Below, in pieces: positions 1,470 through 44,861 of a stretch of 64,000 nt of DNA (the first letter of the stretch is position 1; each line of letters begins with the position of its first letter). Made by a program: the position numbers and the translations under genes. The notes under the pieces are model-generated. The model saw only the letters and a program-made list of their open reading frames with translations. It made no database searches and was not told the DNA's origin. The stretch spans positions 928,001 through 992,000 of the forward strand of contig CBDEFM010000002.1 of NCBI GenBank assembly GCA_965237415.1. Reading direction: 5' to 3'. This stretch comes from Alphaproteobacteria bacterium. Its GTDB lineage: Bacteria; Pseudomonadota; Alphaproteobacteria; UBA828.

Positions 1470-2612
1470 TCAGTAATCCGGTTCACCCAACAGGGCGGCG
1501 TTGAAGCCGAGCTCGGACGTCCTCGGTGACCAAAAGTCGATCGCATAGATGTCCGGGACAACGCCCGGCGAGATTGTGTTGCAACCTGCTGCAAAATTCC
1601 GTCGCCGTGCCGGTTTCGCACAGCTTGACGTTTTCATGTGTGACTTCCAAACCCCAGGGAACCAAATTTGTGTTTGGTACTTCTTTGCCGTCGAGAATAT
1701 CCACCACCAGCTTGAAGGTATAGGACACCGTCCACAGCCCTGAACCGATCGAGTTACCTCTCTTGCCGAGCGCGCCCTCGACACCCGAATCGGCGGGCAG
1801 CATCTGCAAGCGGTTGCCGTTGGCCGATTCGCCCGCGCACGGGACAATCGGATTGTCGGGCCACCAGCCGTCCTCGACCTGCATCTGCGACAGCGTATAG
1901 CAGCCGGTTTGCGCCACAATACCGTCGATCTCGCCCCACCCATGGGTTGCCAGGAACTCGCGCATCTTGAGCCGAGCCTCCGAGTGGCTCCACGAGCCCA
2001 CCAGCTGACCGAGCACGTTGACCTCGGGATACTTGGCGACGGTCTGCACAAAACCCTTATGATGGTTCTCGCTGTAAGACACGCCTGGCACGCCGGTGAT
2101 GGCGACGATGTTGCCCTTCCCGCCCATCTCATCGATCACCCACTGGGTCCGGTGCGCGCCGAGCCCAACTCCATCGATCTTGACGATATAGGCGCAGGGT
2201 TCGGTCACACCATTGACCACCGCCACCACGACGCCCTCGCCGCAAGCGTTGCGGATCACGCCATTGAGCGCGGTGGCGAGATCGGAAAGGCAAAAATAGC
2301 GTCCGCGCCAGCCTGAACCATCGCGTTCATTTGCTGGATTTGCCGAGCCGCGTTGGCCCCAGAAGCCTGGACCCTAAGCTCAACGCGGTCGCGATAAGGC
2401 GCCGTCTTCAACATCGCGACGGCCGTGTTCATTGCTTCGGTCTGCCAGGCGTTGCCGACATAGCTCATGCTGTAATAGATAAGGTATTTGCCGTCCTTGG
2501 TCTTGGCGTCAGCGGATCCCGGCGAAAAACCGAGTCCCAGCGCGGCCGCCAGAACGGCGATGAACATGAACCGCATTACCCACGCGATCGATGAAGGTTT
2601 CATGGCTTTCAC
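1470..2612 (-). pseudogene. Sugar-type (RbsB-like) ABC substrate-binding protein split by two single-base frameshifts (~2275, ~1595)
   Basis: Signal peptide and NAWQTEAMN / QIQQMNAMVQAGADAI in ORF 2256..2612. Continues in 1483..2259, then in the 1470..2132 frame (FAAGCNTISPG...). Confidence 0.75.
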
Positions 2613-2715
2613 CCTCCCATTTTGTAAAGTCCTAGGCGAGCTATTCGCGTCTTTCCGATGATAATAGCGTAGCGGCTGCGCGATGGCAACGCCGGTACTG
2701 ATCTGGTGTCGCTAG

Positions 2716-2840
2716 TCACCTGAATCTGAAGTTCGCCACATAAAGACAACTATATTGCACGACCACATTCTTCGACAATAGAGCGACTTAGTGTGACGAC
2801 ACTGCCAATTGAAAATGATCTCAACTTCAGTGTCAGGTGA
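2716..2840 (+). mobile_element. 125-bp MITE, copy 1, flanked by CTAG
   Basis: 18-bp imperfect TIR TCACCTGAATCTGAAGTT / AACTTCAGTGTCAGGTGA. CTAG at 2712-2715 and 2841-2844. AT-rich and non-coding. Confidence 0.9.
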
Positions 2841-2913
2841 CTAGCACATGATGTGTCCGGTTTAGGTAGCACACGAGTTGTCCGGTTTGGTGTCTCCGTG
2901 GGGAGGGACCGCG

Positions 2914-4098
2914 ATGAGCCGGACGACGTTGCTACAGGAACGCAGGATGCAGACGTTTCAGAATGTGCTGGGGCACTGGCAGGCACGACGCCTGTCTGCG
3001 CTGGAGGCGGCGGAGATGCTGGGGATGAGCGAGCGGAGCTTCCGCCGCTACCGGCGCCGCTACGAGGACGATGGCCTCGACGGATTGTTCGACCGAAGGC
3101 TCGACAAGGCGTCCGCGCGCCGCGTGCCGGCCGACCGGATCGAATGGGTGCTCGAGCAGTACCGAACCCGCCATACGGGCTGGACGGTCAAGCACTTCCA
3201 CGACCATCTCTGCGCCCACCATGGCTTCGCCTGGAGCTACACCTGGACCAAGACCACCTTGCAGCGCGCAGGCCTGGTGTCCAAGGCACCCAGGCGCGGC
3301 GCCCACCGTCGCCGGCGCCCGCGCAAGCCCTGCGTCGGCATGATGCTCCATCAGGACGGCTCACGCCATGAGTGGCTGGCCGGCCAGGCGGCGTGCGACC
3401 TGATCGTCACCATGGACGACGCCACCAGCGAGATCTATTCGGCCTTCCTGGTCGAGGAGGAAGGCACCGCGTCCACCTTCCGGGCGCTGAAGCAGGTGTT
3501 CACCGACAAGGGGATGCCCAGCAGCCTCTACACCGACCGTGGCAGCCACTACTTCCACACCCCCGAGGCAGGCGGCAAGGTCGCCAAGGATCAACACACC
3601 CAGGTCGGCCGCGCCCTCCATCAGCTCGGCATCGAGCACATCGCTGCCTATTCGCCCGAGGCCCGCGGCCGCTCCGAGCGCGCCTTCGGCACCCTCCAGG
3701 ACCGCCTCGTCAAGGAACTGGCGCTGGCGGGGATCGCGACGGTCAAAGCCGCCGACCGCTTCATCGCAGACACCTACCTGCCCGACCACAATCGCCGCTT
3801 CGCCACCCCGCCCGAACTCGAAGACAGCGCCTTCGTGCCCCTCGAACACCCCGGCCAGATCGACGACATCCTCTGTCGCCGCACAGACCGCACGGTCGCC
3901 CGCGACAACACCGTGCGCTACGAAAGGCGCGTCCTCCAGATCCCCGCTACCCCGGCCAGACACCACTACGTCAAGGCCACGGTCCGGGTCCATGAGTATC
4001 CGGACGGAACCCTCGCCCTCTTCCACGGGCCCCGATGCCTCGCCCGCTACACCGCCAACGGCGAGCCCATCGAAACCCCAACCCGGCAGGCCGCGTGA
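2914..4098 (+). CDS. DDE transposase (ISNCY/IS1202, IS481-related fold)
   Basis: N-terminal HTH; HQDGSRH, MDDATS, YTDRGS and GRSERAFGTLQDRL motifs; GGAGG RBS before ATG 2914. Confidence 0.92.
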   Translation: MSRTTLLQERRMQTFQNVLGHWQARRLSALEAAEMLGMSERSFRRYRRRYEDDGLDGLFDRRLDKASARRVPADRIEWVLEQYRTRHTGWTVKHFHDHLCAHHGFAWSYTWTKTTLQRAGLVSKAPRRGAHRRRRPRKPCVGMMLHQDGSRHEWLAGQAACDLIVTMDDATSEIYSAFLVEEEGTASTFRALKQVFTDKGMPSSLYTDRGSHYFHTPEAGGKVAKDQHTQVGRALHQLGIEHIAAYSPEARGRSERAFGTLQDRLVKELALAGIATVKAADRFIADTYLPDHNRRFATPPELEDSAFVPLEHPGQIDDILCRRTDRTVARDNTVRYERRVLQIPATPARHHYVKATVRVHEYPDGTLALFHGPRCLARYTANGEPIETPTRQAA

Positions 4099-4122
4099 GA
4101 CGCTTCGACGCGACCGGCCGGC

Positions 4123-4175
4123 GCCCTGTGGACAAGTGGACAGCCGCTCCGCGCCTGACCACTTGTCCACAGGGC
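4123..4175. repeat. 17-bp perfect inverted repeat in the IS subterminal region
   Basis: GCCCTGTGGACAAGTGG ... CCACTTGTCCACAGGGC; also present in IS copy 2. Confidence 0.85.
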
Positions 4176-4238
4176 AAACCGCAACAACAGAAGCGGACAT
4201 ATGATGTGCTACGAAAACCGGACAAATACACTTGCTAG

Positions 4239-4363
4239 TCACCTGAATCTAAAGTGCGCCACATAAAGACAACTATATTGCACGACCACATTCTTCGACA
4301 ATAGAGCGACTTAGTGTGACGACACTGCCAATTGATAATGATCTCAACTTCAGTGTCAGGTGA
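4239..4363 (+). mobile_element. 125-bp MITE, copy 2, flanked by CTAG
   Basis: Direct repeat of 2716..2840 with 3 substitutions seen; CTAG at 4235-4238 and 4364-4367. Confidence 0.9.
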
Positions 4364-4471
4364 CTAGCGTCAAGCGGCGCAAATTCGATCGAAAATTTGA
4401 TTTTGACAGGGGGGCGCCAAACTGGCATTGGCGACGGCCACGATAGTTCCAAGAAGAAGGGAGGCACGGGC

Positions 4472-4806
4472 GTGGCAAAGCGGGAATGGGGCGCCAAGCA
4501 CACGTGTATGAGTTGCGGCGTGAAATTCTACGACTTGCATCGAAATCCGATCACTTGCCCCAAGTGCGGCACCGAGGCCGAGGTGGAAACCGCGCGGCCG
4601 AACCGGCGGCGCCCGTCGGCGCAGCCGGCACCGGCGCAACCCGCCAACGAGGAGTGATCCCGGTCGCTGCGGACGAGACTGACGACGACGACACCGATGA
4701 GATGATCGACGACATAGACGATGACGACGATCTGGTTGAGGACATTGACGACACGGAGGCGGCTCATCCCGAGCTTGACCCAGGGCAGGCGGTCCCTAAT
4801 TCTTGA
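4472..4806 (+). CDS. TIGR02300 / FYDLN-acid family protein, apparent 1-nt frameshift at ~4655
   Basis: AKREWGAKHTCMSCGVKFYDLHRNPITCPKCG; the acidic tail is in another frame. Confidence 0.75.
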
Positions 4807-10918: not shown

Positions 10919-13316
10919 TCAGATGGTGCTGGGAAAAGCGAAGGGTTTCGGATTCAAGAAACTCCTGAGCACGTTTGAGGTGATGACGGCCACATGATTG
11001 TTGTAGCCGTTCCAGGCCATGCTCCCGGCCCACGCAATCGAGCCCGTCGAGAACACGGCGCCGCCGTTGGCGGTCTCGAAGAACACCATGTCGCTGCGGA
11101 TAATGTCTGCCTCGGTTCCACCCGGGCCCGGAACCGGATCGAGCATGTCTTCCGGCGTCATGAGATAGACATCGGTATATCGCTCCGACGACGCCAGAAC
11201 GAGCACGTGCTCGGGCGTGCCGAGCGCGTGATCGACCGCGTCAAGCTCCAGGCCTGCGGCGCCACCTCCGCTCAAGCCAAAATCGCCGATAATCTCGTCC
11301 TCCACGCCTTCGAAAACGAAGGCGGCCCTGGGATCCCGGCTGGCCTGCATACGACGATAGGGCGCGGAAATGTCGAAACCCTGCGAAACCATGCCGATCC
11401 CGACCAAGCGGTTGGGCGGCCGCCCGTTGCGGCGCCAAAGGCCCGTGTATTCGCCCGTGAAGCTCGCGAAGAATTCGCCGGGCAACGGCGAGAAAGCGCG
11501 AATGCCATCCTCGGATTTTCGGCACTCGATGACGCCGGGTAGCTCTGGATGGAACGAGATCCGCCAATAGAATCCATTCCCACCCAAATACATGAGCCGC
11601 CCGCCCCGATGGACGTAGGCTTCGAGCGCGTCAAGCATCGAGGCGCTGTGATACTCGGGATGAGAGCCGGTCAGCACGACCCGGTAGTCCTCGATCAGAG
11701 ACAATCCTTCGCGGTGCAGATCCTCATCGGTAATGACGTCGAAGCGTTCGCCGCAGTGTTCGAGCCAACCCAGGATGTGCGTATCGGCGTTGAACTGCCA
11801 TACGTTGGAACCGGCACCCCCCCAGGGCCCCAACGATCTTGGGCTGCATGTCGACGACGGGCCGCAAGCGCGAGCTGTAGAATACGCCCGACCCGTCGTT
11901 GTGAACGTCGTAGAAGCAAAGGCCGAGCTCCGGGTGCTCCTGCATGAACAGGTCATGTTTCTTATGCTCCAGGAGCCTCCCGACCACGATCTCCGCTTCC
12001 GGTACGTCCAATGCGATGCGGTTGTTGGCGTACGCCATGTAGCTTGCCGTCGGCAGCAGGAAGGCAGCGGACGCCGTCGGCCCCTCTCGCGGCGGAAGCA
12101 CCGCGAGAGGTACGTAGAACTCGTCCTCCGCCGCGTGAAGACGCACCGCGTACAAACCGCTGCGAATCCCGTTCGGAATCTCAAACGAAAAATCGGTGTC
12201 CCAGCCGGCGTCATAGAGATCGTCGTCATGAAAGTGGACGGCTGCGTAGCGTTCAGGCGTTTGAACCCAGCAGAACGCGTCCCCGCCTCCATTTTGTCCT
12301 GTCACGCCACGTGTCGGGAGGTTGACCAGGACGCCATGCAGGTGCCGGGGCGAGACATCGACCATGCGATCGGTGGAAATGCCAATCGAGAAGTCCCACG
12401 CGGCGACCAGATCCACGTCACGCGCGCTCCCGGACTGTGCATCCAACTTGGCGATCATGTCCTCGGGTTCTAGTCATCTGGCACTGACGTTGAGATCATT
12501 ATAGATTAGCAGTGCTGCCACACTAAGTCGCTCTATTGTCGAAGAAGTTAGTCGTTCAACATAGTTAGCTTTATGTGGCGAACTTCAGATTCAGGTGACT
12601 AGGACGGAAGCGTAAAGCGAAGGCCGTTCCAGCCGGCCGTTGAAGTGGCGTTCCGCCGATCGATCCATGGCCGGACGAGCGGCTACGGTCATCGGCGCCG
12701 CGACGTCTGAGGGAACAGCGGAACACCGTCCCTCACGGGTCACAATTGCTGCGTCTGCCGGCAGGGGATGCGGCGCGAGGCGGCGTTGCGTGACAATCAT
12801 CCGGCCGTCCTCGGCGCACAGGCTCGCCGCCACCAGATACCATCGTTGCGCAAGCAGCGGTTCCTCGGTCGACACCGAGGACGCCTCTGCACCGCCGAAA
12901 TCAACAGAAAATTCGAGGGCGCCAGCCTCGTTCAGAAAGAGTTCGAATCCTGCGCCCGTCAGGGGATCGCGTCGCGCGAGGACCGTCTGCGGCCCGTCAC
13001 CCGGCATTGTCGGCCAGATCGCCGCGAACACCGTGAATGTGGAAAGAGCTCGGAACGCCGCGTTGTCTTCGACAATGCCGTAGGAACCCGGATGAAGGGG
13101 CTGGAAACGTCCCTCGAAGGGACCTCCAAGGTCCAGATCGACAGCGTCTTCGCGATAGCCAGGACCCTGCGGATTGATATCTCCCTGAATGATGCGGACC
13201 AGTTCGGCTTCGTAGCGGTTCAGCCCCTCACAGCTCACCTTGATCTCGACCGCTTCGCCGGGTCTCCCGCTCAGCCGGTCGGCGTAGGCCAAAATCCTCA
13301 CTTTCGCATCCCCCAC
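10919..13316 (-). pseudogene. N,N-dimethylformamidase large subunit-like, interrupted by a MITE and a +1 frameshift at ~11820
   Basis: Three collinear pieces: LamG-like N-terminal part; IAK...TASYMAYAN...FYDVHNDGSG; and WQFNAD...GSHPEY...YLGGNGFYW...GGAVFSTGSI. Confidence 0.85.
12474..12598 (-). mobile_element. 125-bp MITE, copy 3 (diverged, inverted)
   Basis: CTAG at 12470-12473 and 12599-12602; same TIR. Excision restores the reading ...SV-LEPED-MIAK. Confidence 0.9.
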
Positions 13317-42774: not shown

Positions 42775-43317
42775 ATGATGGAACGGATCGACGTCACCCC
42801 CGAGTATATGGAGAGCGAGCGCGTCGCGCGCTTCAAGGACCTGAAGTCGAGCGCTCATGCGTTCGTCGATGCGCTGATCCCGGGCTATGAGCGGGACATT
42901 TACAACATCATCGGCCGCGGCGTGGTCGAGGATAAGGAGCTCAAGCCGCCGATCACCGACAACCGCGACTTCAATGTCGGCCTGATCAAGGCGGAGCCCG
43001 GCAAGGGCGCTTCGCTGCACATTCACGAGACCAACGAGGTGTTCATCCCGCTGACCGGCAAGTGGGGCATCTACTGGCAGAACAGCGACGGCCAGCGCCA
43101 CGAGGTCGTGCTCGAGCCTTACGACACCGTATCGGTTCCCATCGGCGCGAGTCGGGGCTTCCGCAACGCGGGCGACGGGACAGCGCTCATGCTCGCCGTG
43201 GTGGGCGGCACCGATCCGGGCAAGGTTCACTGGCCCGAGGAGACGATCGAGGAAGGGCAGCGCCACGGCATCGGCCTCGACGAAAACGGCGACCTCGTGC
43301 GGCTCGAAGAAACCTGA
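42775..43317 (+). CDS. Cupin domain protein
   Basis: LHIHETNEVF, SVPIGASRGFRN. Confidence 0.85.
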   Translation: MMERIDVTPEYMESERVARFKDLKSSAHAFVDALIPGYERDIYNIIGRGVVEDKELKPPITDNRDFNVGLIKAEPGKGASLHIHETNEVFIPLTGKWGIYWQNSDGQRHEVVLEPYDTVSVPIGASRGFRNAGDGTALMLAVVGGTDPGKVHWPEETIEEGQRHGIGLDENGDLVRLEET

Positions 43318-43340
43318 TCGGTAGACCGGTAACGTGTGTG

Positions 43341-43369
43341 GCGGCGGGGCGCTGATGTATCCCCGCCGC
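43341..43369 (+). terminator. GC hairpin after the cupin gene; IS insertion site
   Basis: GCGGCGGGG / CCCCGCCGC 9-bp stem. Confidence 0.5.
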
Positions 43370-44777
43370 TGTCGCTAGCAAGTGTATTTGTCCGGTTTTC
43401 GTAGCACATCATATGTCCGCTTCTGTTGTTGCGGTTTGCCCTGTGGACAAGTGGTCAGGCGCGGAGCGGCTGTCCACTTGTCCACAGGGCGCCGGCCGGT
43501 CGCGTCGAAGCGTCTCACGCGGCCTGCCGGGTTGGGGTTTCGATGGGCTCGCCGTTGGCGGTGTAGCGGGCGAGGCATCGGGGCCCGTGGAAGAGGGCGA
43601 GGGTTCCGTCCGGATACTCATGGACCCGGACCGTGGCCTTGACGTAGTGGTGTCTGGCCGGGGTAGCGGGGATCTGGAGGACGCGCCTTTCGTAGCGCAC
43701 GGTGTTGTCGCGGGCGACCGTGCGGTCTGTGCGGCGACAGAGGATGTCGTCGATCTGGCCGGGGTGTTCGAGGGGCACGAAGGCGCTGTCTTCGAGTTCG
43801 GGCGGGGTGGCGAAGCGGCGATTGTGGTCGGGCAGGTAGGTGTCTGCGATGAAGCGGTCGGCGGCTTTGACCGTCGCGATCCCCGCCAGCGCCAGTTCCT
43901 TGACGAGGCGGTCCTGGAGGGTGCCGAAGGCGCGCTCGGAGCGGCCGCGGGCCTCGGGCGAATAGGCAGCGATGTGCTCGATGCCGAGCTGATGGAGGGC
44001 GCGGCCGACCTGGGTGTGTTGATCCTTGGCGACCTTGCCGCCTGCCTCGGGGGTGTGGAAGTAGTGGCTGCCACGGTCGGTGTAGAGGCTGCTGGGCATC
44101 CCCTTGTCGGTGAACACCTGCTTCAGCGCCCGGAAGGTGGACGCGGTGCCTTCCTCCTCGACCAGGAAGGCCGAATAGATCTCTGAGGTGGCGTCGTCCA
44201 TGGTGACGATCAGGTCGCACGCCGCCTGGCCGGCCAGCCACTCATGGCGTGAGCCGTCCTGATGGAGCATCATGCCGACGCAGGGCTTGCGCGGGCGCCG
44301 GCGACGGTGGGCGCCGCGCCTGGGTGCCTTGGACACCAGGCCTGCGCGCTGCAAGGTGGTCTTGGTCCAGGTGTAGCTCCAGGCGAAGCCATGGTGGGCG
44401 CAGAGATGGTCGTGGAAGTGCTTGACCGTCCAGCCCGTATGGCGGGTTCGGTACTGCTCGAGCACCCATTCGATCCGGTCGGCCGGCACGCGGCGCGCGG
44501 ACGCCTTGTCGAGCCTTCGGTCGAACAATCCGTCGAGGCCATCGTCCTCGTAGCGGCGCCGGTAGCGGCGGAAGCTCCGCTCGCTCATCCCCAGCATCTC
44601 CGCCGCCTCCAGCGCAGACAGGCGTCGTGCCTGCCAGTGCCCCAGCACATTCTGAAACGTCTGCATCCTGCGTTCCTGTAGCAACGTCGTCCGGCTCATC
44701 GCGGTCCCTCCCCACGGAGACACCAAACCGGACAACTCGTGTGCTACCTAAACCGGACACATCATGTGCTAGCGACA
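43370..44777 (-). mobile_element. IS1202-family-like insertion sequence, copy 2 (intact, 1408 bp, 17-bp target duplication)
   Basis: Ends TGTCGCTAGCA...TGCTAGCGACA; TGATGTATCCCCGCCGC at 43353-43369 and 44778-44794. Confidence 0.93.
43515..44699 (-). CDS. DDE transposase, same protein as 2914..4098
   Basis: Identical translation in the ORF track. Confidence 0.93.
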   Translation of the reverse strand: MSRTTLLQERRMQTFQNVLGHWQARRLSALEAAEMLGMSERSFRRYRRRYEDDGLDGLFDRRLDKASARRVPADRIEWVLEQYRTRHTGWTVKHFHDHLCAHHGFAWSYTWTKTTLQRAGLVSKAPRRGAHRRRRPRKPCVGMMLHQDGSRHEWLAGQAACDLIVTMDDATSEIYSAFLVEEEGTASTFRALKQVFTDKGMPSSLYTDRGSHYFHTPEAGGKVAKDQHTQVGRALHQLGIEHIAAYSPEARGRSERAFGTLQDRLVKELALAGIATVKAADRFIADTYLPDHNRRFATPPELEDSAFVPLEHPGQIDDILCRRTDRTVARDNTVRYERRVLQIPATPARHHYVKATVRVHEYPDGTLALFHGPRCLARYTANGEPIETPTRQAA

Positions 44778-44794
44778 TGATGTATCCCCGCCGC

Positions 44795-44825
44795 TTGACA
44801 GCCTGTAACCACGCGGTAATGTCGC
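44795..44825 (+). promoter_or_regulatory. Putative sigma70 promoter of rpmG
   Basis: Perfect TTGACA at 44795-44800; -10 region degenerate. Confidence 0.4.
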
Positions 44826-44861
44826 CGCGTCCGTGACACTAGCAAGAGCCGAGCGTATCCG

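Follow-up and report, generated by a model that had tools for sequence, protein, structure and literature searches.

The segment at positions 2707-4372 of the window (the whole stretch of 64,000 nucleotides that was analysed) raises the question of how an insertion sequence (IS) with an intact transposase gene came to hold a MITE in the terminal repeat at each of its ends, and whether such insertions favor IS ends over other sites in the genome. Read from the assembly, the segment has the order TGTCG-CTAG-[125-bp MITE]-CTAG-IS-CTAG-[125-bp MITE]-CTAG-CGTCA and is composed, together with the elements used for comparison, of the following features (endB is the IS end upstream of the transposase gene, endA the end opposite to it; X and Y are the two IS copies defined below):

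2707-2711, plus strand: outer 5 nt of the IS (TGTCG) at endB; the same TGTCG-CTAG terminus is found at intact copies
2712-2844, plus strand: left MITE (2716-2840) with both CTAGs (2712-2715 and 2841-2844)
2841-4238, plus strand: interior of the IS1202-family IS from CTAG to CTAG, 1398 bp, with 3 nt differences from the intact copy
2914-4098, plus strand: transposase gene, an intact open reading frame matching NF033594; 394/394 amino acids identical to the intact copy at 43370-44777
4235-4367, plus strand: right MITE (4239-4363) with both CTAGs (the outer one at 4364-4367), in the same orientation as the left one
4368-4389, plus strand: 22-nt stretch starting with CGTCA, duplicated target of the X..Y insertion; exact repeat of C2:896913-896934
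12470-12602 (C2:940470-940602), minus strand: third MITE of the window, 87% subfamily, in a non-IS CTAG
43370-44777, minus strand: intact reference IS, 1408 bp, with both end CTAGs free and a 17-bp duplication at 43353-43369 and 44778-44794

The lengths of this sandwich add up (1666 - 2x129 = 1408, the length of the intact IS copy, whose 17-bp duplication reads TGATGTATCCCCGCCGC). The left MITE severs the TGTCG tip from the remainder of the endB repeat; it is 100% identical to 17 further genomic copies and differs from the right MITE, which lies in direct orientation to it, at 3/125 positions. The transposase comprises 394 amino acids if translated from the ATG and 406 if translated from the upstream TTG at 2878. 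The first-pass annotation had thus described the structure correctly to the base, including the three differences between the equally oriented MITEs and the intact transposase reading frame. Its statement that this copy lacks the 17-bp duplication also holds: there is no matching target duplication on the two flanks, and the left-flank 17-mer occurs only once in the genome even if 3 mismatches are tolerated; the search that had been suggested, for the same 17-mer beside another IS end, accordingly yielded no second copy. Junctions of the type IS end/CTAG/MITE/CTAG/IS occur at 7 genomic places with different outer flanks and with three MITE sequence variants.

Based on its sequence features, the host IS is assigned to the IS1202 (ISNCY) family, and within it to the subgroup with long target duplications. 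In a profile search, the transposase matched NF033594 (ISNCY) with 371 bits (cut-off 250); HTH_29/HTH_23 were detected above their cut-offs, and a match to rve remained, with 26 bits, below the cut-off of 32.6. The element ends in TGT...ACA (TGTCGCTAGCA... and ...TGCTAGCGACA) with imperfect terminal repeats, the first 11 nt of which are identical at both ends and are followed by the common block GTCCGGTTT; each repeat holds a CTAG at positions 6-9. Target duplications of 15-18 bp flank 5 copies (17, 17, 18 and 16 bp at four of them), one copy exhibits a duplication of 7 bp only, and relatives in other genomes have duplications of 15-17 bp. The assignment to the subgroup follows from these 15-18-bp duplications and the TGT...ACA ends, since both match the table in the available part of PMC10132070. 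According to the same part of that source, members of the subgroup possess Q, rather than K/R, as the seventh residue after the catalytic E; in the translation, read by eye, a Q is positioned 7 residues after the candidate catalytic E in SERAFGTLQ. The likeness to ISCARN53, ISCARN63 and ISTde1 was drawn from published descriptions rather than from sequence: as far as the available text of PMC10132070 describes them, these elements share with the IS studied here duplications of 16-17 bp, TGT...ACA ends and a transposase of about 400 amino acids, and they are 1327-1404 bp in length (Table 7 therein) compared with 1408 bp.

As a separate observation, a GNCAA motif is present 17-22 nt outside one end of the IS. 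For the long-duplication subgroup, the available part of PMC10132070 states that no target was found; the motif differs in this respect, and insertion at a distance of 17 nt from GNCAA bears on the target question left open by that family-defining paper.

The MITE (125 bp, non-coding, 42% GC, 37 full genomic copies) carries the terminal repeats TCACCTGA...TCAGGTGA and folds into a long hairpin, as is expected for any element with inverted ends. Its terminal repeats agree with those of a resident IS of 1181 bp in 19/20 nt on the left and 17/17 nt on the right, the interiors being unrelated. This IS is present in 5 copies, and its 374-amino-acid reading frame, intact in 4/5, matches NF033545 (IS630) with 281 bits (cut-off 100). 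On the strength of the terminal repeats in common with a resident autonomous IS, the 125-bp element is classified as an IS630-family MITE, and the 18 identical copies in the genome suggest recent activity. Two other origins were considered: a derivation from the IS5 family, proposed from the 4-nt CTAG, was dropped once the IS630-family partner turned up, and C2:2255719-2256882 was rejected as parent, since it encodes an IS1595-family transposase and represents an old MITE copy with a nested IS1595-family IS and an 8-bp duplication on its flanks. CTAG is found on both sides of 36/37 full MITEs and of 5/5 copies of the IS630-family IS; the single exceptional MITE site reads ATAG...ATAG, which fits a 4-nt duplication or a changed end base. 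All sites of both elements contain TA, and at CTAG duplications of 2 nt and 4 nt look alike.

The missing target duplication of the sandwich copy is accounted for by its right flank. An exact second copy of the 22 nt from 4368 starts at C2:896913 and immediately adjoins the left side of a further IS copy (X, at C2:896934, 34 kb upstream; the sandwich copy is termed Y); the repeat amounts to 24 nt if the shared AG is counted, compared with the usual 16-17 nt. In a contig of the public run X13, the left flank of X runs straight into the right flank of the sandwich, i.e. the site is uninterrupted (empty). Because of the outer-end repeat and this empty site, the sandwich is regarded as forming the right arm of an insertion of 35.4 kb that is bracketed by IS copies; it is without a target duplication of its own because that duplication flanks the X..Y pair as a whole. 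The CGTCA found instead of the expected IS terminus CGACA is also present in the uninterrupted target, and both outer tips of the pair (TGTCA and CGTCA) are off consensus. X and Y are direct copies that bracket 32 kb of cargo (an ABC transporter, hydantoinase genes, a peptidase and three IS256-type transposases) and resemble composite transposons, in which two IS copies enclose cargo, the unit as a whole is flanked by a duplication and an unoccupied site exists elsewhere. The pair may have moved as one unit, or a circle with one IS may have recombined with a resident copy, as homologous recombination of this kind gives the same picture. A replacement of the right flank by MITE-by-MITE recombination, as had been put forward before, is not supported, given the pairing of this flank with the left flank of X and the empty site in X13.

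A contig of the same run also joins the left flank of the sandwich copy to a MITE-free IS end, which indicates that the left-end MITE arrived in place after the IS; at this end, the order of events is IS first and MITE second. The sequence that follows this left flank in run X1 does not occur in the source genome with up to 2 mismatches, so that no partner of the left flank was found. The idea of a mobile, MITE-bounded composite unit is not supported, and no sign of its movement was detected: the sandwich is a single case, it is bordered on the left by the IS terminus TGTCG, and the MITE arrived in place.

For the enrichment analysis, the MITEs were removed in silico, which resulted in 1818 genomic CTAG sites (19 in IS ends, 1799 elsewhere); the tetranucleotide is rare in this genome of 67% GC. 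Genome-wide, a MITE occupied 7/19 IS-end CTAGs versus 29/1799 of the others (Fisher 2.8e-8). The difference was retained if the comparison was confined to non-genic CTAGs outside IS ends (28/1531 occupied; 6.6e-8) and if local GC and genic class were adjusted for (likelihood-ratio p 1.2e-6); local GC as the cause of the bias was therefore rejected. Sequence context offered no explanation either: only 1/226 GCTAGC sites outside IS ends was occupied, neither GCTAGC nor longer contexts were preferred, and no extended target motif was detected in the 29 occupied non-IS CTAG sites. At an occupancy of about 37%, one doubly occupied copy is expected among the 8 two-ended copies, so the sandwich itself needs no special process.

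Such an excess could in principle arise with no targeting at all, if the MITE landed on CTAGs at random and survived where it was harmless, i.e. in IS ends and IS-rich islands. Indeed, only 1/268 CTAGs classed as inside genes was occupied, occupancy near IS copies (5-8%) was 3-5 times the genome mean, and a like argument was made for the RUP element beside pseudogenes in the available text of PMC3049150. Since the MITEs cluster in IS-rich islands (e.g. 6 copies within C2:3681352-3692163), part of the excess is regional, and measured against nearby CTAGs it is about 5-fold only (p 0.005 to 0.02). Nevertheless, the IS ends exceeded their own neighborhood (7/19 versus 3/46 CTAGs occupied within 5 kb, p 0.005, and 5/91 within 10 kb, 7e-4), and CTAGs in other multi-copy, presumably dispensable DNA were occupied in 1/35 cases. 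Furthermore, use of this CTAG recurs outside the source genome: two other species, G009 and G017, harbor relatives of the host IS (82-86%) whose endB CTAG is interrupted by a full-length IS630-family IS from a different lineage (1045 and 1053 bp). Survivorship or a regional effect as the whole explanation is, in consequence, considered unlikely.

Neither the context of 6-8 nt nor local GC nor neutrality alone thus explains the preference for IS ends, and because the excess survives the controls for coding, GC, neighborhood and repeat DNA, the proposal of the first-pass annotation that the MITE preferentially hits IS ends is supported. Taken together, the locus is probably a case of nested insertion, in which an IS630-type MITE has been recurrently and preferentially placed in the end CTAGs of an IS of the IS1202 family. 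As to the cause of the preference, our guess is that the IS end has some feature that is structural or bound by protein. Relative to the transposase gene, all 7 IS-end MITEs have one orientation, so that they point in opposite ways with respect to the two inverted repeats; this arrangement is not predicted by a model of simple sequence recognition.

The number of events behind the seven occupied ends (5 at endB, 2 at endA) has to be considered separately, as one or two MITE insertions might have been followed by transposition of the IS with the MITE inside its end, and seven would then overstate the events. Four of the endB MITEs are identical, all 5 share one orientation, and two MITE-bearing copies are flanked by intact 16-18-bp duplications around IS plus MITE, a picture that movement of the combined unit would produce as well. 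In three of the 5 endB insertions, the MITEs are identical and the IS copies differ from each other at only 15-22 nt; these are not provably independent, and only about 4 independent events are defensible. On the other hand, the IS at C2:2400805 shows at least 86 nt differences to every other copy, whereas its MITE is a 100% match to the master copy, with no difference instead of the expected 8 or so. The MITE-bearing IS copies form no clade, two copies devoid of the MITE (971370 and 357423, which differ from the sandwich copy at 3-4 nt) are nested within the MITE-bearing group, and the two endA MITEs belong to different subfamilies (87% and 98%). In X13, the left end of the sandwich is free of the MITE, and an end with 129 bp placed between its tip and its binding sites should no longer be recognized. 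Dissemination by transposition of pre-loaded IS copies is therefore judged very improbable as the origin of the pattern.

In two large contig collections, which perhaps do not include the source genome, the 26-nt MITE-IS junction had 0 matches. That the sandwich is an artefact of collapsed or mis-joined repeats in a metagenome-style assembly can be practically dismissed: the genome has a reported completeness of 96% and a contamination of 6%, and among the pieces listed from the short contigs of four other public runs none spans the MITE-IS junction, the breaks falling at repeat borders, but every junction exhibits the exact CTAG duplication of a real insertion, the seven junctions have seven different outer flanks, the unit of 1.67 kb is shorter than typical long reads, and equivalent nesting is present in two other assemblies.

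Nested transposons are common, and transposases of the IS630 family target the TA of CTAG and leave a CTAG on either side. IS630 itself is said to prefer the TA within 5'-CTAG-3', as reportedly described by Tenzen and Ohtsubo in 1991. This known preference accounts for the need of a CTAG; it does not account for the approximately 20-fold higher use of the IS-end CTAG relative to other CTAGs. For ISY100, a duplication of TA was shown (PMC2170065, in the part available). In the nested-insertion model, the IS630-family transposase would mobilize the MITE in trans, and the insertion would detach the 5-nt tip, where cleavage takes place, from that portion of the repeat to which the transposase binds, which would disable the end. 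A MITE-split IS is plausibly immobile, as predicted from this arrangement, despite its intact transposase gene.

Outside the source genome, the raw occupancy was 2/25 examined CTAG-bearing ends; of the 40 relatives searched, one further genome had the full MITE, in a single copy located outside IS ends, and two close IS relatives contain CGAG and CTAA in place of the end CTAG. A more far-reaching scenario, which we regard as possible but rather doubtful, is that IS630-family elements seek the terminal repeat of this IS1202 lineage through a feature beyond CTAG and cap its ends, and that escape by change of the CTAG results in an arms race. The feature sought could be DNA that is bent or bound by the resident transposase; the capping elements, namely the MITE and full-length ISs of two IS630 lineages, may act as parasites of a parasite that leave the transposase gene intact; and the IS lineage may escape by mutation of its CTAG, as in the CGAG and CTAA relatives.

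In the literature searched for MITE or IS630 insertion into IS terminal repeats, only one proposal was found, which concerns RUP of Streptococcus pneumoniae: RUP was suggested to prefer IS elements and thereby to limit them (Oggioni and Claverys 1999, as related in the available parts of PMC2229807 and PMC3049150). According to the available text of PMC3049150, this association had been drawn from a draft genome and was later not supported. RUP, with its partner IS630-Spn1, and the MITE described here are alike in their size of about 100 bp, IS630-family terminal repeats and insertion at TA. RUP, however, was reported in several IS families and their transposase genes and not at one nucleotide position; the present MITE, in contrast, occupies one tetranucleotide in the terminal repeat of one IS lineage and leaves the transposase gene intact, and its excess was tested against several controls. 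The locus therefore represents a sharper, testable case of a MITE policing insertion sequences, an idea that was raised for RUP and then doubted.

For genome annotation, the finding serves as a warning that the ends of an IS copy may be non-functional even though its transposase gene is intact. If the bias is real, the target choice of Tc1/mariner/IS630-type elements can be steered to the ends of another element, and such insertions would provide a natural route by which IS copies with intact genes turn immobile.

A read-through of the assembly over window positions 2580-4500 and 43300-44850 found the first-pass annotation's description of a MITE-IS-MITE sandwich to be correct base for base. 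The copies concerned are listed here (C2 denotes the window's own contig in the host assembly, plain coordinates count within the window):

43370-44777: intact IS copy of 1408 bp, reading TGTCG-CTAG-CA...TG-CTAG-CGACA, with a 17-bp duplication on either side
2707-4372: sandwich; the same IS, in which the CTAG of each end holds the 125-bp element (MITE) plus one extra CTAG (129 bp)
C2:896934-898332: IS copy X, in the same orientation as the sandwich, its far end carrying a MITE of the 87% subfamily

As that annotation had also stated, the two MITEs of the sandwich lie in direct orientation, differ at 3 positions and enclose an intact transposase ORF; its 394-aa product is identical to that of the intact copy, and the IS interiors differ by 3 nt.

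The IS transposase matches NCBIfam NF033594 (ISNCY) with 371 bits (cut-off 250). Based on its size, its TGT...ACA ends and its duplications of 15-18 bp, the IS is assigned to the long-duplication subgroup of the IS1202 family (subgroups as defined by Harmer et al. 2023, PMC10132070). The host assembly (4.75 Mb, 66.7% GC, two contigs), whose nearest named relatives in the public collection are MAGs of uncultured Alphaproteobacteria, contains nine IS copies with 1-105 nt pairwise differences; a more distant subfamily of the same genome (72-74% identity, 8 copies) has repeats without CTAG and copies without MITE. Two inverted copies of this related subfamily (C2:1667372-1668585 and C2:4028784-4029993), each situated just upstream of a tRNA gene, have swapped 16-nt flanking duplications, as expected for a recombination inverting the 2.36 Mb between them. 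The IS copy at C2:357423-358841 has an 11-bp internal insertion and a matching duplication of just 7 bp (CTCTGTG) versus 16-18 bp at the others. A further copy (C2:923903-925300) is truncated on the transposase-upstream side and broken near its other end by a different element that bears inverted repeats of its own, past which the displaced end is found with its CTAG free. IS copies with 97-99% identical transposases occur on contigs labelled as Phototrophicaceae and Dehalococcoidia MAGs of a different phylum (loci L012, L013, L023, L029), reflecting either recent transfer or mis-binned contigs.

The genome holds 37 full MITE copies, 36 with CTAG and one with ATAG on both sides. Five 1181-bp elements, each between two CTAGs, end in the same terminal repeats as the MITE and encode a 374-aa transposase (NF033545, IS630; 281 bits; ORF intact in 4/5); the two elements have their termini alone in common (19/20 nt left, 17/17 nt right). 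Because of these common repeats, the small element is classified by sequence as an IS630-family MITE, which the 374-aa transposase would mobilise in trans. IS630 elements reportedly prefer the TA in CTAG. A sixth element with MITE-like ends (C2:2255719-2256882) proved to be an old diverged MITE copy with a nested IS1595-family IS (313-aa transposase, NF033547; 8-bp duplication on both sides). At C2:3812542-3813725 and C2:3755569-3756882, IS630-family elements adjoin at a common CTAG, the pairs consisting of a MITE with a second IS630 lineage and of a MITE with the 1181-bp IS; since every insertion leaves a CTAG on either side, an occupied site can be targeted again.

CTAG is rare in this genome: base composition would predict 14,634 sites and a Markov estimate gives 5,570, yet just 1854 are present. 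After MITE removal, 1818 sites remained, 19 of them at IS ends, and 36 MITE sites were scored as occupied, the ATAG-flanked copy not being among them. The earlier suggestion that the MITE may preferentially hit IS ends is supported genome-wide: 7/19 IS ends were occupied compared with 29/1799 of all other CTAGs (Fisher 2.8e-8), the related IS copies among the 19 ends not being independent samples.

MITE occupancy of further CTAG classes (p versus IS ends; coding status from a crude codon-position GC test)
Non-genic CTAGs only: 28/1531 (6.6e-8)
CTAGs classed inside genes: 1/268
CTAGs within 2 kb of an IS end: 2/25 (0.02)
CTAGs within 5 kb of an IS end: 3/46 (0.005)
CTAGs within 10 kb of an IS end: 5/91 (7e-4)
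CTAGs in other multi-copy DNA: 1/35
GCTAGC outside IS ends: 1/226

The excess persisted after consideration of local GC and other covariates (likelihood-ratio p 1.2e-6), and no extended motif was present at the 29 other occupied sites. Relative to the genome-wide level, occupancy near IS ends is thus raised 3-5 fold, a regional effect, to which the IS end itself adds a further ~5-fold excess. At an occupancy of ~37% of ends, about one of 8 two-ended copies would be expected to be hit at both ends.

The MITE-bearing IS copies form no clade among the nine; the copy at C2:2400805 differs by at least 86 nt from all others, yet its MITE matches the master copy exactly. The two insertions at endA (the end opposite to endB, which lies upstream of the transposase gene) are of different MITE subfamilies, and one of those at endB is a 96% variant. 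At least four insertion events appear to have been independent; the three identical MITEs hosted by very similar IS copies are possibly, but not necessarily, so. Relative to the transposase gene, the 7 MITEs share one orientation (1 in 64 if orientation is random and events are independent, less rare if not), which is opposite with respect to the two inverted repeats, so a model in which the repeat sequence is simply recognised does not account for it.

An exact repeat of the 22 nt that follow the sandwich on its right (from 4368) adjoins the left side of copy X, at C2:896913. Copy X and the sandwich bracket 35.4 kb, including 32 kb of cargo (an ABC transporter, hydantoinase A and B, an M20 peptidase, a Cys/Met PLP enzyme, three IS256-type transposases and a truncated IS copy). 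In a contig of the public run X13, the left flank of X continues into the right flank of the sandwich without interruption. The sandwich therefore has no duplication of its own because it is the right arm of this IS pair; the MITE-by-MITE recombination suggested at first as a possible cause is not upheld. A second X13 contig joins the sandwich's left flank to a MITE-free IS end, i.e. the pre-MITE state, and contigs of three other runs (X1, X15, X16) depart from this flank exactly at the IS border; the order at the left end is IS first, MITE later. The CGTCA in place of the expected CGACA also occurs in the uninterrupted target, at a position immediately beyond the usual 16-nt duplication, and represents either an IS tip with one change or a duplication of 21-24 nt with the tip missing.

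A GNCAA motif, in many cases GTCAA (complementary to TTGAC), lies at a fixed distance, 17-22 nt outside endB, from the IS of this subgroup, as seen at window 44778-44800, C2:896913-896933 and loci L010, L011, L018, L019, L024, L036, L044, L072 and L073. Exact GTCAA at -23..-20 occurs on the transposase-upstream side in 6/28 distinct sites and on the other side in 1/28 (chance about 1e-9); at two copies the motif resembles the -35 box of a tRNA promoter. No target is reported for the long-duplication subgroup in the family paper (PMC10132070). At C2:3691480-3691510, and in a contig of run X16, two IS ends face each other 16-17 nt apart (CGACA-N16/17-TGTCG); this could be a circle-like junction or the result of a tandem insertion beside an existing end, for which that IS end supplied the target motif.

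Relatives of the IS were present in 12 of the 40 relatives searched. In the genome of another species (G009), a 1045-bp IS630-family IS of another lineage (22 full copies there) occupies the endB CTAG of an 86% relative, outside which the 17-bp duplication is intact; in a second species (G017), a 1053-bp relative of this IS630 sits in the same endB CTAG. Outside the host genome, 2/25 CTAG-bearing ends examined were occupied, a small count that supports end targeting in direction only. Two copies of an 84% IS relative in another MAG (L016, L017) carry CGAG and CTAA in place of CTAG, so that the IS630 target is lost at both ends by single changes.

The pairing of an IS630-family MITE with IS1202-family ends was not found described in the literature, as far as main texts, searched selectively, are concerned. 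The closest precedent is the pneumococcal RUP, an IS630-family MITE for which targeting of IS elements was proposed in 1999, a claim not upheld by later genome analyses according to the parts of the sources consulted (PMC2229807, PMC3049150). In contrast to RUP, the insertions described here are found at a single tetranucleotide within the terminal repeat of one IS lineage, they leave the transposase gene intact, and the excess stands up to several controls. The 129 bp placed between the 5-nt tip and the transposase-binding part of the repeat would abolish the function of the IS end.
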